This document shows positions 1 through 5,572 of a DNA stretch of 64,000 nt, piece by piece. Numbering within the stretch: position 1 is the first letter of the stretch; every line of letters begins with the position of its first letter. Source of the DNA: Candidatus Bathyarchaeota archaeon (GTDB taxonomy: Archaea > Thermoproteota > Bathyarchaeia > Bathyarchaeales > Bathycorpusculaceae); NCBI GenBank assembly GCA_963767735.1, contig CAVYES010000005.1:32001-96000 (forward strand), in the 5' to 3' direction. Under the pieces are notes generated by a model. The model was not told the DNA's origin and searched no databases. It saw only the letters and a program-made list of their open reading frames with translations. The position numbers and the translations under genes are program-made.

Positions 1-262
1 TTCTTAACAAAAGTCTCTCTTCAGTTCAGGCTTTTCTAAATGCAAAATCCAGTTGTGACTTCTTAAGCTTATGTGACTGCCGCATGACAGCAACAAAAAC
101 TGAAATACGTTAAGTTTCACTCGGATTAGAAAAGCACTTCAATATATTATATTTATTTTTTGAAAGATTACTTTTGGCCATATACGAACTCCAAACCAAA
201 AAGCAACAAAACAATGATCTGAAAGGAACTTTTAGCCATTCGACACAGCAAAAAGTAGGAAA

Positions 263-277
263 GGTTAAAATTTAATC
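263..277 (+). repeat. Left target-site duplication GGTTAAAATTTAATC
   Basis: Identical to 5558-5572; 14-15 bp is the TSD length characterised for casposases (a 13-bp TSD with 20-bp TIR is also formally possible). Confidence 0.88.
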
Positions 278-296
278 CCCAAACCCAAACCCAAAC
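278..296 (+). repeat. Left terminal inverted repeat CCCAAACCCAAACCCAAAC
   Basis: Exact reverse complement of 5539-5557. Confidence 0.92.
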
Positions 297-488
297 GACG
301 ACGGAAACGACGAAAAAACCTGAAAAAAACGGCTAAACGATGAAAAAACTACGAAACGACGGTTTATTTTTATAATTATTGTTGTTTACACTATAATTTT
401 TAATATTATTTACAATTTTATCTTAAATGTTGTGTAAAGTTGAATGTTAAAGATTAATTAAATTCAGTATTAACATTTTATAATTTAA

Positions 489-731
489 TTATTGTTTGAC
501 CTTCACAGAAGATAAAGCACCATAAACACTACAAGTAACACCAATCAACGAAAAAACAAGTCCAATTATAGCAACAATAGAATATTCAACTATTGTATTA
601 TAAATACCAATCCAATAAGCAGTTTTAGGATAAGGGTCACCAAGCAACTGTAAATCATGAAACCCAATCATCAACATAACCAAACCTAACACCGTAAGAA
701 CAATGCCAATAATAATGATTCCAATTTTCAT
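489..731 (-). CDS. Small two-TM membrane protein (element cargo)
   Basis: 80 aa with two long hydrophobic segments, downstream of cas1 inside the TIRs. Confidence 0.7.
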   Translation of the reverse strand: MKIGIIIIGIVLTVLGLVMLMIGFHDLQLLGDPYPKTAYWIGIYNTIVEYSIVAIIGLVFSLIGVTCSVYGALSSVKVKQ

Positions 732-870
732 TTTTTTACCATCTTAGGACATTTTTTTCAGCACTACATTACAATTATTAATAACGATAAAATCCAAATT
801 AATATTTTATGAATATGAAATTAATATTAACTTAGATTCACTAATGATTACATTAAAAATTGGGAAAAGA

Positions 871-1905
871 TTAAATTGTTGGAAGTCTCGGAATCCAACT
901 TGGTTTTTCATGCCTAAGATACTTCGCTAAAAGTAACGCTTCTTCACTAATTAATGTCTCAAACTCTTGTCTTTTCCCGACTCTGATTCTTGGTATTTCC
1001 ACATAAGAATTAAACAAACTATCTAATTCAACCATGAAACTTTTAGTTTCATCATCGTTAAGATATTCTCTTTTCCCAATTTTTCCACGTGACATTAACT
1101 CACTTTTTGTTATGAAATCCTTTTTGCTCAATTCCTTACAGAATCCGATAATAAAATCATCAATGATGTATCTGTAAATCTCCATGAAATCACATATTAA
1201 ACTTGGCTTACCGAATTGTTCACTATGCAAAAAACCAAGATAAGGCTCTAATTTCGCATTAACAAGTGCTTTATGAACTTTCCAGTTAAGCATCTCATAA
1301 CCTAAATTGAAAAGATTATTTATTCCATCATAAGCCTTGAAAGTTCTTCTACATTCAGGTCTTATCCTTTCAGGTATTAAATCAAACACTTGTTTAAAAT
1401 AAAATTCTGCACAATGAGATTCATAAGTGGAAATAATAACTCTAACTTTAAGTAAATTGTCACTATCAATATTCTTAATCCTTGAAATCATGGCAATATC
1501 AAACGGTTTTAAACTGTATTTGCTCAATACCTTATTTTGACCTTCTATTTTACTTAAAACAATTATTTTTGCAATCTCTAAAGCTCTACCATCTTTTAAC
1601 GCTTCATACTGTTGTATCCTTGTATCTACATGGTCATCATTATCTAAACTTCTAAGCATCGCAACAGGTCTCCCTTTTTGCGTAATAATCAAAACATCAA
1701 TATCCCAAAAACCTAAAGATGCTAAAGCACCTGTAGAAACACAATTACCACTTTTTAGTACAACTTCACCAATTTCTTTTTCAAATAATGGATAACGTTT
1801 AACATTTCCAGTTCTATCTTTAACTATAAAACAGCCTTTTTCCATGCCTAAATAACTGCCTTGTTTATCAAGCGTTATTTTCAGAGTTTTAGAGCCTTTA
1901 ACCAT
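871..1905 (-). CDS. cas1: Cas1 solo / casposase
   Basis: Cas1 motifs: YESHCAEFYF (Glu), INNLFNLGYEML, LEPYLGFLH (His), SLICDFMEIYR (Asp/Glu); 344 aa, no obvious C-terminal HTH extension. Confidence 0.95.
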   Translation of the reverse strand: MVKGSKTLKITLDKQGSYLGMEKGCFIVKDRTGNVKRYPLFEKEIGEVVLKSGNCVSTGALASLGFWDIDVLIITQKGRPVAMLRSLDNDDHVDTRIQQYEALKDGRALEIAKIIVLSKIEGQNKVLSKYSLKPFDIAMISRIKNIDSDNLLKVRVIISTYESHCAEFYFKQVFDLIPERIRPECRRTFKAYDGINNLFNLGYEMLNWKVHKALVNAKLEPYLGFLHSEQFGKPSLICDFMEIYRYIIDDFIIGFCKELSKKDFITKSELMSRGKIGKREYLNDDETKSFMVELDSLFNSYVEIPRIRVGKRQEFETLISEEALLLAKYLRHEKPSWIPRLPTI

Positions 1906-2016
1906 TTTTAAACCTTCATTTCAAACTATTAATAATTATTAATAATAATTAATTAATGTTAAGGTAAAAAATATAAACATTTCACTCATTATTAATAAGT
2001 TTTAGTGACTGTTAAC

Positions 2017-2151
2017 ATGACAAAAAAACTTATTTTAGATATTGATAATGAAACTTGGAAAGAGGTTTTAAAGTACAAAATTGATAACGATTTAAAGAAC
2101 AATAATGAAACAGTAATTTTACTGATAAAAAAAGCATTATCTCTAAAATAA
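2017..2151 (+). CDS. Small ribbon-helix-helix-like regulator divergent from cas1 (not in ORF track)
   Basis: Manual translation MTKKLILDIDNETWKEVLKYKIDNDLKNNNETVILLIKKALSLK: beta-strand plus two helices pattern. Confidence 0.65.
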   Translation: MTKKLILDIDNETWKEVLKYKIDNDLKNNNETVILLIKKALSLK

Positions 2152-2528
2152 ACTTGAATCTTCACAAAATAATTATTAGAAAAAAAGTGGAGGAAAGTAA
2201 TTTAGATTTTACTCTAAAACTACTTTTTACCTATGTATTTGACTTTGATTATTAGTGCTAATATTCCCATGCCTATGAAACATAAAGGCAATAATCCCCA
2301 AATAGTTATTACCGTTGCGTTCCAACCGCATATACAAACTCTTTATGTAAAAGTTTTTTGTATCGGTAGCATAGAAAATAGCGAACCCTATGATTCTGCA
2401 TAATTATCTAAAAATTTAGGTAACTATTCAGCAGCAAGCACTAATATGACAAAATCAACCAATCCCCTCACGGTCGATAAGACCATGATTTAGGTCGATG
2501 ATATCTGTCATGTTTTTTGTGTAACCCT

Positions 2529-2546
2529 CCCTAAGTCAACTTAGGG
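2529..2546. promoter_or_regulatory. Palindrome CCCTAAGT-CA-ACTTAGGG, possible operator or hairpin
   Basis: 8-bp perfect inverted repeat with 2-nt centre in an intergenic part of the element. Confidence 0.35.
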
Positions 2547-2658
2547 CTTGATTAGATATAAAAGATTTGCTATATTTTTGGTGTTTGATTCAAAATAAAC
2601 TTTTAAATTACTTTTTAGATAAATTTTTACTTGTTTTTTATCTTTAATATAATTATAT

Positions 2659-2820
2659 TTATTCTTTTATAGGCTCAAGAATTAACGTAAATTTTTGTTT
2701 TCCATCTAAAACAGCTTTCAATTCTTCCAAATTAGCAAGATAACGTTCATGCTTAACCATTACAGTTACTTTTTTACTATCTTTAGTTAAACTCAAATAT
2801 CCACAATCTTTCCAATTCAT
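2659..2820 (-). CDS. Small hypothetical protein (53 aa, not in ORF track)
   Basis: MNWKDCGYLSLTKDSKKVTVMVKHERYLANLEELKAVLDGKQKFTLILEPIKE; ATGA overlap with the stop of the upstream ORF. Confidence 0.7.
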   Translation of the reverse strand: MNWKDCGYLSLTKDSKKVTVMVKHERYLANLEELKAVLDGKQKFTLILEPIKE

Positions 2821-3503
2821 TGGCATTCAATCACCTCACTAACAGCTTTTACATTAGAATCAACAGATTTCTTAACAGAATCCTTAAGCGAATTCTTAAC
2901 AATATTCAAAATAATTCTTCTTGTTTCAAGTAATTCTTTTATTTGGTTGTTTTGACTACCATAACGAAAAACAATTTTGGGCGAAGGTTTATCAATTTTA
3001 GGGCTAAACCTTAATGTTGAGCTTTCCTTAATACACTGCATTAAAACCCATTTTTGTAAATCTATACTACTGCTTTCAAGTGCAATCCAATTTATTATAT
3101 GAACATTTTTAGTCCAGCTAACAGGTCTATCAAAAGCAACAAGATAATTCTTTTCAAAATATCTGTAACTAACTTTTCCTTTTTTCCCTTTTTCTTTAGC
3201 AATATGTTCTTTTCTACTTGATTCAAAAATAATAAATCCATTCAGATTAAACCAATTTAATGCTCGAAAAGCATAATATCTCACTTTATCAAGAGGCATC
3301 TTATCAAAATCAATTTGAACTATATTTTTACTCCAATTCCCAATAATTACAGATAAAATATCATCAGAAAAATCATTACCTAAAACACGTTTTGCAACTT
3401 GATATAATTCTTTTTCAGTGCCGAACGTTTGAATCCTTTTCTGTTTGCCATTAACAGAACCGTAAAAAGCAACTTGAACTTTTAGCTGTTTATTCTCGGT
3501 CGT
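2817..3503 (-). CDS. Candidate AEP (archaeo-eukaryotic primase)-like protein; frame extends upstream of the ATG at 3299
   Basis: Frame is open to 3503; the extension holds IVQIDFDK (hhDhD-like), followed by FESS...NYLVAF and STLRFSPK; no canonical start codon in the extension. Confidence 0.45.
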   Translation of the reverse strand, partial: TTENKQLKVQVAFYGSVNGKQKRIQTFGTEKELYQVAKRVLGNDFSDDILSVIIGNWSKNIVQIDFDKMPLDKVRYYAFRALNWFNLNGFIIFESSRKEHIAKEKGKKGKVSYRYFEKNYLVAFDRPVSWTKNVHIINWIALESSSIDLQKWVLMQCIKESSTLRFSPKIDKPSPKIVFRYGSQNNQIKELLETRRIILNIVKNSLKDSVKKSVDSNVKAVSEVIECQ

Positions 3504-3949
3504 TTATCCCACTCTTCTTTTGAAAGATATTTATCTGGATTAGAAAGTAACTTGCTTGCATCTATAGTTAAAAATTGAGATTTAGGTGAATAACCGCTTT
3601 TTGTTTTACCAAAATCAAATATTTTTTCTCTTATTACTTTATGTAAAGTTTTACCATCTATTGAAAATATATTAATTCTACTCGCATGACCGTTAACTAA
3701 TCCGCTAAATGAAACTACTTTTTCTCTCGGATGATAATATCTTCTATATTTTTTAGGTGTATATTTACTAACATTGGCTTGTGCAGGTCTATTTCTAAAT
3801 TCTCGTGTATAGTTAAGTATTATTTGTCTTCTTAATCCAATATGTTCGCTTCTAAGCTCTTTTTGAATCTGATTAGCACTATAACCTCTTGCATTAAGCT
3901 CTCTTATTCTATTAACTTGTTTAGATGAAACTCCAGATTTACGACTCAA
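3482..3949 (-). CDS. Basic HTH-like DNA-binding protein
   Basis: N-terminal RELNARGYSANQIQKELR...RRQIILNY resembles an HTH; 4-nt overlap with the upstream gene. Confidence 0.55.
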   Translation of the reverse strand: MSRKSGVSSKQVNRIRELNARGYSANQIQKELRSEHIGLRRQIILNYTREFRNRPAQANVSKYTPKKYRRYYHPREKVVSFSGLVNGHASRINIFSIDGKTLHKVIREKIFDFGKTKSGYSPKSQFLTIDASKLLSNPDKYLSKEEWDKRPRINS

Positions 3950-4374
3950 AAAGTTTCACCTTCTAAATTTAACCTTTTTTTCTCTTCTTCCGTTAATGGA
4001 GCTTTACGCTCAGATTCATCTAATCTTAACTGTAACTTTTTTTCTCTATCTATTTTATTCTCATAATTCTTAATGATTTTATGAAGTTGTGATAAATAAT
4101 AAGGAAAACTTTTAGATATTGTTATAATTTGAGTTTTATAATCAACAGTTATTAAACCTAAATTTTCAACATGACTTATTATTTCTGTTGTTTGGTTTTG
4201 GTGAGGAGCTTTAGGCATACCGCCCTCAGTGATAAACGCATTGTTAAAATCATTTATAGTTTTATTTTTACATGATTTAAGCATAAAATCCATAATTTTT
4301 AGGTTTTTAAGAAGTTTTTGTTTTGCCCAATATTCTTCTTGACTTTCAATCGGTTTTATACTTATATCTGTCAT
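3946..4374 (-). CDS. Hypothetical protein, possible winged helix plus coiled coil
   Basis: IISHVENLGLITVDYKTQIITIS resembles a wHTH wing; coupled to neighbours. Confidence 0.55.
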   Translation of the reverse strand: MTDISIKPIESQEEYWAKQKLLKNLKIMDFMLKSCKNKTINDFNNAFITEGGMPKAPHQNQTTEIISHVENLGLITVDYKTQIITISKSFPYYLSQLHKIIKNYENKIDREKKLQLRLDESERKAPLTEEEKKRLNLEGETF

Positions 4375-4526
4375 TTATACCGCTTAACCTTCTTTTTCCA
4401 GTTAAAATGAAATTCTCTTAAACTTGTTTTTTTATGTGAAGCTCTGGGTAAAAGTACACGTTCTTTCCAAAATTCTATTTTTACATCTAAAACGTTACCA
4501 TGACAGTCAACATGTAGTTTAGACAT
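4371..4526 (-). CDS. Small basic hypothetical protein (51 aa, not in ORF track)
   Basis: MSKLHVDCHGNVLDVKIEFWKERVLLPRASHKKTSLREFHFNWKKKVKRYK; overlaps both neighbours at start/stop codons. Confidence 0.6.
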   Translation of the reverse strand: MSKLHVDCHGNVLDVKIEFWKERVLLPRASHKKTSLREFHFNWKKKVKRYK

Positions 4527-4945
4527 TATTTTTCACCTTTAGAGCTTTCAGGGCTTTTTTTTATCTGATTAATCCAATTAGTTTTTAATTTTTCATTTTT
4601 CAACATACTTATTTTTTCAATTAATTCTGAATCTGATAATTTTTCATAATGATTTGACTTAATAAAATCAGTTAAATCTAAAGTAAAATCTTGCTCTTTT
4701 TCTATTTTCGGTTGTATTTGCGGTTTTTCTTCTTTAACTAAATTATCTGTAATTCCATTTTTTCTTTCGAATTTCAACATTTCTTTTGCAGTATTTAGAT
4801 AATCTACTCTTGTATCTTGGCAGAAACACATAGCAAGTTCAGTTAATACATCATTTTCAGATTCTCCATCTTTTAATTTTTTCATTACGGCTCTTATATT
4901 TACATCTCTTATTGTTGAGCCTGACCTTTTCTTAAATTCACTCAA
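4526..4945 (-). CDS. Hypothetical protein
   Basis: 139-aa ORF in the coupled operon. Confidence 0.6.
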   Translation of the reverse strand: MSEFKKRSGSTIRDVNIRAVMKKLKDGESENDVLTELAMCFCQDTRVDYLNTAKEMLKFERKNGITDNLVKEEKPQIQPKIEKEQDFTLDLTDFIKSNHYEKLSDSELIEKISMLKNEKLKTNWINQIKKSPESSKGEK

Positions 4946-4948
4946 AAT

Positions 4949-5131
4949 TTAAACCTCTTCTCTAATTTCTTTTTGACCTATATTTTGACTTGTATTTTTT
5001 TCTGTAATTGTAAAAGTATTTCCACAATTTCTACATCTAAAATTATTAAAATAAAATCTAAAATATGTTTGAGTTGAATTGAATTTTGGACATCTGTGAT
5101 TTTTTACTTTTGTTTTTTGCATAGACATCAA
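4949..5131 (-). CDS. Small zinc-ribbon-like protein (degenerate first CxxC)
   Basis: RCPKF...RCRNCGNTF; first gene of the element's leftward operon. Confidence 0.55.
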   Translation of the reverse strand: MMSMQKTKVKNHRCPKFNSTQTYFRFYFNNFRCRNCGNTFTITEKNTSQNIGQKEIREEV

Positions 5132-5320
5132 ACAAACAGTATGTTTGTATCAAATTTAAGTTCTTCGATTTAGTTTTTTATCAATTTTGAGTTAATAATC
5201 CAACCCATATAGCTTGAATGGATTAATAAATTTCTACCTCAAAAACGTTTCAAAATTTACAATATATTTAGGGCTAACTCAAACTTCAGAGCTAACTCCT
5301 AACTATTCTTTATTCAGCGA

Positions 5321-5460
5321 GCTAACTAACGAACGAGCGAGCTAACTAACGAACGAGCGAGCTAACTAACGAACGAGCGAGCTAACTAACGAACGAGCGA
5401 GCTAACTAACGAACGAGCGAGCTAACTAACGAACGAGCGAGCTAACTAACGAACGAGCGA
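5321..5460 (+). repeat. Perfect tandem repeat 7 x 20 bp (GCTAACTAACGAACGAGCGA)
   Basis: Units start at 5321, 5341, 5361, 5381, 5401, 5421 and 5441; no spacers. Confidence 0.97.
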
Positions 5461-5538
5461 GCGAGCGAATGCGTGGGAGAGAGGGATAAGGAGAGCTTGA
5501 GTTTGGGTTTGTGAGTAGGCGTAGGCGTGTGTGAGGAA

Positions 5539-5557
5539 GTTTGGGTTTGGGTTTGGG
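5539..5557 (+). repeat. Right terminal inverted repeat GTTTGGGTTTGGGTTTGGG
   Basis: Exact reverse complement of 278-296; partial extra copy at 5501-5511. Confidence 0.92.
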
Positions 5558-5572
5558 GGTTAAAATTTAATC
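5558..5572 (+). repeat. Right target-site duplication GGTTAAAATTTAATC
   Basis: Identical to 263-277. Confidence 0.88.

Follow-up and report, generated by a model that had tools for sequence, protein, structure and literature searches.

A casposon-like, Cas1-bearing mobile element without a family B polymerase in a Bathyarchaeia genome

Casposons are the accepted source of the enzyme that carries out adaptation in CRISPR systems, and to our knowledge every characterised casposon family is defined by Cas1 together with a family B DNA polymerase (PolB). Here we describe a 5.3-kb element that encodes Cas1 and lacks PolB, at positions 263–5572 of a 64-kb stretch of Bathyarchaeia DNA (hereafter the window), which is G000:C5:32001–96000 in a genome of 3.04 Mb and 10 contigs (G000). 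Makarova and colleagues are said to have reported Cas1 homologues in Asgard archaea in 2020, which may bear on the novelty of this family. In the portions of the literature consulted, described casposons carry PolB (PMC4046053, PMC9939771, PMC6563490). A 'family 5' of casposases from hot-spring metagenomes was proposed by Salgado et al. in 2022 (PMC9755687); according to the parts of that article consulted, its members are solo Cas1 proteins that keep the catalytic residues, lack a helix-turn-helix (HTH) domain and share more than 50% identity, with PolB in only one contig and inverted ends in five contigs, one of them listed as family 3, and its authors suggest 'non-self-replicative transposons'. 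The main text of that article does not mention target-site duplications, primases or Bathyarchaeia, the words 'target site' occurring only in a cited title, and no other PolB-less description appeared among the matches listed for the literature on casposons, including that on Bathyarchaeota and that since 2023. As far as these parts of PMC9755687 go, the idea of PolB-less casposons is already in print, and the 'new class' proposed by a first-pass annotation of the window, made from the letters alone, was too strong a term. The properties described for 'family 5' agree with those of the present family, and we think it fairly likely that the two overlap. Four points appear to be new: a target that is a 15-bp palindrome, a primase-like gene found family-wide, the arrays of repeats, and how broadly the family is spread in Bathyarchaeia.

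The element is flanked by exact copies of the 15-mer GGTTAAAATTTAATC, which match over 16 nt if the C that follows each of them is counted, and perfect inverted ends of 19 nt lie directly inside this duplication, with (CCCAAA)3C on the left and its complement on the right. The G+C content (GC) of the element is 29% overall, as against 41–43% for the host, and 0.25–0.30 per 500-nt window, and its surroundings are richer, at 0.39–0.47 to the right of the element and 0.42–0.43 across the contigs of the genome. Cas1 is the longest open reading frame (ORF) inside the element; it matches PF01867 (E = 1.9e-45, 155.6 bits), and none of the catalytic residues E162, H227, D239 and E242 varies across 26 aligned members of the family. 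A Pfam scan of the nine non-Cas1 window ORFs gave no Cas2, recombinase or polymerase match at E ≤ 0.1, and a repeat finder run over the 64-kb window returned no CRISPR-like array. The first-pass annotation had reported an AT-rich segment with perfect 19-bp terminal repeats, an exact 15-bp duplication and a cas1 gene with intact catalytic residues, and no cas2, CRISPR array or polymerase-sized ORF, and on each of these points the ORF scan and the search of the window agreed with it. The principal features are these:

263–277, no strand: target-site duplication, left copy (GGTTAAAATTTAATC), a near-palindrome; exact direct repeat with 5558–5572, the same motif flanking elements here and in other genomes.
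278–296, plus strand: left terminal inverted repeat, 19 nt, (CCCAAA)3C; perfect reverse complement of 5539–5557, with the same terminus in loci L021, L022, L025, L049, L069 and L171.
871–1905, minus strand: cas1, 344 aa, presumed integrase, with the PF01867 match and invariant residues given above; in 29 of 29 elements.
2817–3512, minus strand: primase-like gene (like RepB' or an archaeo-eukaryotic primase, AEP), interrupted; GTG at 3512–3510, TAA at 3506–3504, own stop at 2817–2819.
5539–5557, minus strand: right terminal inverted repeat, 19 nt; perfect complement of 278–296.
5558–5572, no strand: target-site duplication, right copy, 15 bp; identical to 263–277.

The terminal sequences at 278–296 and 5539–5557 are telomere-like simple repeats with a G-rich 3' strand, (TTTGGG)n; in some relatives (L021, L025) the copy number is unequal between the two ends, which suggests slippage.

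The Cas1 protein was compared with its relatives in CRISPR systems and casposons. The best PADLOC Cas1 model gave 165.7 bits with the window protein, and the PADLOC models reach residues 331–339 of its 344, so that no extra C-terminal domain is present. There are three cas1 genes in the genome, namely a CRISPR-locus copy (252 Pfam bits) that adjoins a 67-repeat array on contig 10, the window copy (156) and the copy in a second element (159). Among solved structures the family profile scored highest with CRISPR Cas1 (4n06, 102 bits), ahead of 7cr6 (81 bits) and the Methanosarcina mazei casposase (6opm, 77.5 bits). An unrooted tree of 46 rows (IQ-TREE, short search) was built from 25 family members, 8 casposon Cas1s and 13 CRISPR-linked Cas1s, the last being 12 with arrays within 10 kb together with the genome's own CRISPR-locus copy; its references were drawn from Thermoproteota only, leaving out casposase families 2–4 and non-Thermoproteota CRISPR types. 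The eight casposon references (L129–L136), which we take to belong to Nitrosopumilaceae, have no CRISPR array nearby, and six of them lie beside a 730-aa ORF that was confirmed as EF-2 by Pfam in L130 and is presumed to be so elsewhere. DNA_pol_B_2 was confirmed by Pfam in the same 20-kb locus as Cas1 in L130, L132 and L135, which identifies these three as family-1-type casposons. The 25 family members form a clade of their own with a Shimodaira–Hasegawa approximate likelihood ratio (SH-aLRT) support of 100, the eight casposon Cas1s form another (100), and the CRISPR set makes up the remainder; the family and the casposon clade join with a support of 66 and a long-branch warning. On this tree the family is placed as a distinct Cas1 lineage, outside both the EF-2-linked PolB casposons and the sampled CRISPR Cas1s, and the grouping with CRISPR-associated Cas1 that the first-pass annotation had named as a refuting outcome was not seen. 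Because the tree is unrooted and its references come from one phylum, the direction of evolution is not readable from it.

The window Cas1 has 1887 homologues at E ≤ 0.001, and among the 120 matches listed identity runs from 62 to 99% over nearly the full length. In a scan of one genome per species, 76 of 79 genomic loci were labelled Bathyarchaeota or Bathyarchaeia, the other three being an 'uncultured archaeon', a Levybacteria bin and a 967-nt Methanophagales contig. The family members in the Levybacteria (L061) and Methanophagales (L074) bins sit on short contigs, for which mis-binning seems likelier than transfer. Several family loci come from assemblies whose isolate names we take to be those of hot-spring sampling sites. 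Many of the source-given names among the homologues listed read 'CRISPR-associated protein Cas1', whereas no convincing CRISPR array was found in any of 159 family loci (79 genomic and 80 metagenomic), a discrepancy of concern for annotation. A 3-copy repeat of the same 18-mer, in one genomic and one metagenomic locus, was not counted as an array; with the same search, arrays were detected in 12 of 12 CRISPR control loci and in the genome's own CRISPR locus.

Elements were delineated with a script that required a direct repeat of at least 11 nt on either side of cas1 and inverted sequence just inside it. Candidates were obtained in 33 of the 79 loci, of which 27 were kept (L033, L038, L042, L057, L075 and L079 were dropped, mostly because their repeats were short or their ends weak). 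Adding the window element and the second element of the same genome brings the number of delineated elements to 29, with sizes of 2.8–12.6 kb. Their GC is below that of the flanks in most cases (equal in three, higher in one), and their ends are simple repeats of the types (CCCAAA)n, CTTTCTCTCTC, (CCAA)n or (CTT)n. None of the 29 contains an ORF longer than 516 aa, and in most of them Cas1 is the longest. The ten largest non-Cas1 ORFs gave no match to any polymerase family in Pfam and instead matched Schlafen/AlbA_2, a lectin fold, a ClpP-like protease or nothing, two further large ORFs being DNA methylases; as a positive control, the same search detected DNA_pol_B_2 in three control casposons. 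PolB is absent family-wide among the 29 delineated elements, and the lack of polB noted at first for one copy thus extends to its close relatives. When all element ORFs were compared with each other by BLAST, Cas1 was the sole family present in every element (29 of 29); a basic HTH-like protein (window 3482–3949) was found in 21, and smaller families included zinc-ribbon proteins. One cargo gene family is common to L047:6903–7847, L060:7134–8141 and L065:13844–14659, and the L047 and L060 members, which were scanned, match N6/N4 DNA methylases.

Evidence for insertion comes from a second element of the same genome, at C5:450.6–459.1 kb. This element has a solo cas1, a length of 8.5 kb and inverted ends of ~250 nt, and it is followed by a 3.9-kb tandem unit without cas1, the whole spanning G000:C5:450598–462986 (L011:4598–16986). 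A weak TniB/AAA-like gene is present in it and in the subclade to which it belongs. In the relative G439, the flanks of which are 83–88% identical, the site is empty and the flanks meet directly, sharing 14 nt; their counterparts in G000 are separated by 12,361 nt, which hold two tandem units and three repeat copies. At the window's own site, the closest relatives that have an orthologue of the right-hand gene are G004 (80% identical) and G019 (76%), and both genomes show a single motif-like stretch upstream of the orthologous gene, preceded by TAGGAAGG-like bases as is the left repeat of the window. Five more genomes of the genus offered no better empty site than G004. The metagenomic locus L171 contains an element of 5.04 kb with a Cas1 94% identical to that of the window, the same 19-nt ends and the same gene order in an unrelated site, which argues for recent mobility of the subfamily. 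Free linear or circular forms were sought among 18 short contigs (~2.5–9.6 kb), none of which had a terminal overlap or ended at inverted repeats.

Across elements and genomes the flanking repeats are variants of the near-palindrome GATTAAAWTTTAATC, and one Cas1 subclade uses GGGGTAAAGTTTTATCC as its target. Tabulated for 28 of the 29 elements (the second own-genome element being left out), the repeats are 15 nt long in 12, 14 nt in 5, 13 nt in 4 and longer in 7 through chance extension; 8 of the 28 are perfect palindromes. The core TTAAAWTTTAA occurs in 67 copies in 1.21 Mb of family loci (31 of 79 loci) compared with none in 0.4 Mb from 20 control loci. At the window site, scanning revealed neither a tRNA nor an Rfam family, and the flanking host genes are two paralogous radical S-adenosylmethionine (SAM) genes in divergent orientation. 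Because the target is located ~15–30 nt upstream of the flanking gene, it might be a promoter (similar to a B recognition element (BRE)/TATA box); against this, the 3.04-Mb genome has no more than 14 copies of the core in all, and of those inspected most abut simple-repeat ends like those of the elements. A 148-nt sequence that ends at the palindrome is present at G000:C4:132859–133006 and C5:298047–298194 (97% identical), with a different simple-repeat terminus following at each.

Several loci contain three to six palindrome copies within 5–20 kb, for instance six in 13.4 kb (L025:7588–20977), and other palindrome arrays were seen in L031, L048, L088 and L171:2183–2237, with units of 10 nt to 7.7 kb. 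The array units that carry cas1 have matched ends; the others range from 10 nt to 4.3 kb, and their ends are mostly unmatched. A part of these, among them the 10- and 14-nt units in L171, probably represents footprints or elements that were truncated; the very short ones (10, 14 and 37 nt) may be footprints of lost elements, and others may be host DNA between independent insertions. The resemblance to a CRISPR array is one of layout only. A 'gaaag' stretch beside many of the repeats was considered as a leader-like motif and rejected, being in most loci the CTTTCTCTC-type end of the neighbouring element.

With PolB missing, a second conserved gene is the candidate for a replication function. 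BLAST clustering gave a family of ~150–230 aa (window 2817–3512) in 10 of the 29 elements and one of ~175 aa in 13, and a profile comparison aligned the same motifs in the two (probability 73.5%, E = 3e-5), which gives a primase-like gene in 23 of 29 elements. None of 167 database homologues of the 150–230-aa family has a functional name or a Pfam domain, and profile searches of the primase-like family against Protein Data Bank (PDB) sequences found nothing meaningful. An AlphaFold (AF2) model calculated from a 64-sequence alignment reached a predicted local distance difference test (pLDDT) score of 94; it superseded a model from 8 sequences (pLDDT 57) that had resembled generic ferredoxin-like folds only. 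The top Foldseek matches in the PDB were RSF1010 RepB' (3h20; E = 0.017, prob 0.96) and the African swine fever virus (ASFV) PrimPol (8iqh; E = 0.048). Among viral models (BFVD) the best was a DUF927 primase-helicase (E = 7.6e-4), and the other top matches were a Pyrobaculum filamentous virus protein, Rep proteins of circular Rep-encoding single-stranded DNA (CRESS) viruses, a giant-virus primase, a C962R-type AEP domain and a D5 N-terminus. In the 64 sequences the acidic pair D69 and D71 is nearly invariant and an xTLRxxxKxxKxP motif is also conserved; together with a histidine (SYH) found in most members, we take the acidic pair to represent AEP motifs. The conserved protein is probably a miniature RepB'/AEP-type primase, which would give substance to the 'different replication module' suggested at the outset. 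It could also be an HUH-type Rep with a similar core fold; the BFVD top list, rich in primase domains, contains HUH Rep proteins as well. Some results run counter to a primase: Foldseek with the model of the primase-like protein produced no match in the PDB at E ≤ 0.001, the AEP-like family PF24387 was matched by only two of eight members at an E-value of 0.0015, below the cut-off, and the SYH histidine is a leucine in the subgroup to which the window belongs.

In the closest homologues (79–87% identical, 218–232 aa) and in L171, the gene starts M/V-G-(Q/Y/H)-T-T. The window copy has GTG (3512–3510) and GGA followed by an in-frame TAA (3506–3504) at codon 3, where the homologues carry Q, Y or H and no stop, and two codons are missing a little further on. 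After the TAA the frame is open to its own stop at 2817–2819, and the next in-frame ATG, GTG or TTG is at 3299, beyond the acidic pair. Given the early stop and the lack of an alternative start before 3299, the gene is probably dead in this copy. The element had been called 'complete', which is too strong a word because the primase-like gene is interrupted. The reverse is seen in L171, where the primase-like gene is intact (211 aa) and cas1 ends early at 317 aa, cas1 of the window being intact.

The remaining features of the element are as follows:

300–350, no strand: subterminal short repeats of AAACGACGAAAAAAC type, two copies, with one more at 543 (direct-repeat family D4); putative protein-binding sites.
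489–731, minus strand: 80-aa hydrophobic protein, element-specific cargo; sub-threshold Pfam matches only, a singleton in clustering; L171 has a 270-aa secreted/membrane protein here.
2005–2151, plus strand: repressor-like protein of 48 aa, oriented divergently from cas1; matches phrog_4738 'transcriptional repressor' (E = 5.2e-5), conserved in L171.
2659–2826, minus strand: conserved small protein of 55 aa, seen in 6 of 29 elements (cluster 5); no family match.
3482–3949, minus strand: basic protein of 155 aa (cluster 1), HTH-like at its N-terminus, seen in 21 of 29 elements; sub-threshold HTH_7 match (E = 0.05).
3946–4374, minus strand: ORF for a 142-aa protein without a Pfam match; homologue in L171.
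4371–4526, minus strand: 51-aa ORF, unsupported (ORF call only, no match, no counterpart in the L171 list).
4526–4945, minus strand: 139-aa conserved protein (cluster 3), in 11 of 29 elements; two members have a zinc-ribbon/DUF2116 segment below the Pfam cut-off.
4949–5131, minus strand: 60-aa zinc-ribbon protein (CxxC...CxxC); sub-threshold zinc-ribbon matches, conserved in L171.
5316–5469, no strand: subterminal tandem array of a 20-nt unit, about seven copies (repeat family D1); putative iteron-like role in protein binding.

Outside the element, the left neighbour (window 1–10 and upstream, L017:10552–12010) is a paralogue of the right-hand radical-SAM gene and appears split into ORFs of 362 and 111 aa, and the last 138 nt of the right-hand gene have a 98%-identical copy at G000:C5:28694–28831. 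The region around the window site is duplicated and rearranged relative to G004, in which we take the neighbour at the corresponding place, from its translation, to be the gene for ribosomal protein S19.

Taken together, the locus is a real casposon-like, Cas1-bearing mobile element, and it likely belongs, as an integrated copy, to a large family of PolB-less mobile elements of Bathyarchaeia that encode Cas1 and are small (about 3–9 kb). None of the three outcomes that the first-pass annotation had named as refuting was seen. In the mechanism we propose, the two G-rich 3' ends of the element would be joined by a Cas1 oligomer to opposite strands of the palindrome at points separated by 15 bp, and gap repair would then duplicate the palindrome. 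As each insertion would leave two fresh targets, tandem units would be possible. With less confidence, we suggest that copying of the element DNA may be aided by the small RepB'/AEP-like primase that the element encodes, together with its HTH protein and subterminal repeats, which would replace the PolB of described casposons; the window copy may rely on other copies or on the host for the primase step. Some observations sit less easily with this account. The primase-like gene is interrupted in the very copy described; the evidence for an empty site in relatives is clean for the sister insertion (G439) and partial for the window's own locus, where the left neighbour gene differs between genomes; many units in the repeat arrays have unmatched ends, and not every pair of repeats brackets an element; and a conserved flanking repeat is also left by site-specific (att-type) recombination.

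The last of these leads to the view that the element is a plasmid or virus integrated by site-specific recombination at a 15-bp att core through an unrecognised recombinase, with Cas1 as cargo. The sequence of the flanking repeat is conserved across genomes, as att cores are, and such an enzyme is conceivable because most of the element proteins have no known family; however, no tyrosine or serine recombinase or DDE transposase was found in the 10 window ORFs and 20 other element proteins scanned, Cas1 is the one family shared by all the elements and its catalytic residues are invariant, and inverted ends abutting the repeat are a feature of transposons. There is likewise no relative among IMG/VR viral contigs, and PHROG matches were restricted to the repressor-like 48-aa ORF and a weak one (E = 0.0075) to a family of unknown function, with no capsid or packaging match. 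The 15-bp length of the duplication, the inverted ends and the failure to find another recombinase favour Cas1 as the integrase, and we regard integration at an att core as unlikely. Less probable still, and in our judgement very improbable, is that the element is a non-autonomous deletion derivative of a PolB-carrying casposon. This would fit the PolB that accompanies casposons in the published accounts cited above, in the portions consulted, and the one broken gene of the window copy, but an ORF of polymerase size is missing from all 29 delineated relatives, L171 has kept the same gene order, and long branches part this Cas1 from the PolB-linked Cas1s tested; with no polymerase in 29 elements and PolB detected in three control casposons, derivation by deletion from a PolB casposon is not indicated.

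The origin of Cas1 in the family allows a different reading, with an unchanged mechanism and the reverse history: Cas1 of CRISPR type would have been taken up as an integrase by a small Bathyarchaeia plasmid or transposon that already encoded the primase, making the family a late offshoot of CRISPR adaptation and not a relative of the ancestral casposon. The best structural match to CRISPR Cas1 and not to the casposase, the missing C-terminal domain and the modest support for the join to casposon Cas1s, with its long-branch warning, are all consistent with such a capture, and the part of PMC9755687 consulted puts the PolB-less 'family 5' next to subtype I-A Cas1. Set against these, the family is not nested in any of the 13 sampled CRISPR-linked Cas1s, and it scores 156–166 bits on general Cas1 models as opposed to the 252 (Pfam) of the genome's CRISPR Cas1. 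We hold a capture to be possible but less likely than not.

If the family is a set of Cas1-driven transposons as we propose, the 'self-synthesizing' PolB would be dispensable for Cas1-driven transposition, and should all CRISPR Cas1s together turn out to be the sister group of its Cas1 clade, the step from casposon to CRISPR array would have a living model in this family. We put forward as doubtful, though worth stating, that no transposon yet found comes nearer to CRISPR spacer acquisition than these elements, with a Cas2-less Cas1 that would duplicate a 15-bp palindrome, kilobase-scale repeat-insert-repeat arrays and a miniature primase in place of PolB. The family is abundant in Bathyarchaeia, its elements are small enough to handle whole, and its palindromic target would be regenerated with each insertion. 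It could thus provide a simple setting in which to study how Cas1, in the absence of Cas2, gauges a stagger of 15 bp and recognises a repeat, two properties inherited by CRISPR adaptation.

Compared with the casposon properties set out by Krupovic et al. (2014), the element shows a Cas1-family integrase with the four catalytic residues, terminal inverted repeats, a target-site duplication and a cas1 unlinked to a CRISPR array or cas2, and it lacks a family B polymerase; its Cas1 forms a separate clade, with the weakly supported join to family-1-type Cas1 noted above. Casposon duplications of 14–15 bp correspond to 15 bp here and to the 14-nt overlap at the empty site of G439. The closest likeness in protein size is to the family 1 casposons of Nitrosopumilaceae (e.g. 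NitAR1-C1; Krupovic 2014, 2019), which have a Cas1 of ~330–360 aa without a C-terminal HTH and which, in the sections of PMC4046053 and PMC6563490 consulted, show inverted ends and a target-site duplication and insert, also in tandem, at one preferred target. They differ in their protein-primed PolB, in a separate Cas1 clade and in a target at the end of a protein gene, EF-2 according to the consulted part of PMC6563490, whereas the present elements have a primase-like gene and an AT-rich palindrome. In family 2 (Aciduliprofundum boonei, M. mazei), too, Cas1 makes a 14–15-bp duplication, a palindromic element takes part in sequence-specific targeting, and arrays run head to tail with nothing but the duplicated site between units (PMC9939771, sections consulted); these casposons differ in having PolB and an HNH nuclease, in the HTH of their casposase and in targeting tRNA genes. 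As to the primase-like protein of 210–230 aa, RepB' of RSF1010 and the AEP primase-polymerases of plasmids and viruses are its best structural matches, along with N-terminal domains of viral primase-helicases, and it has a conserved acidic pair and the xTLRxxxKxxKxP motif; it is much smaller, without a helicase or zinc domain, and the match has marginal E-values and no curated family above cut-off. CRISPR adaptation, finally, also uses a Cas1 enzyme and a partly palindromic repeat, duplicated with each insertion at the leader-proximal repeat, to build repeat-insert-repeat arrays. The module of cas2 beside cas1 with an array nearby is not what is found here; in place of Cas2, nearby effector genes and a leader with an array of short spacers, the present family has inserts of kilobase size that carry inverted ends of their own.

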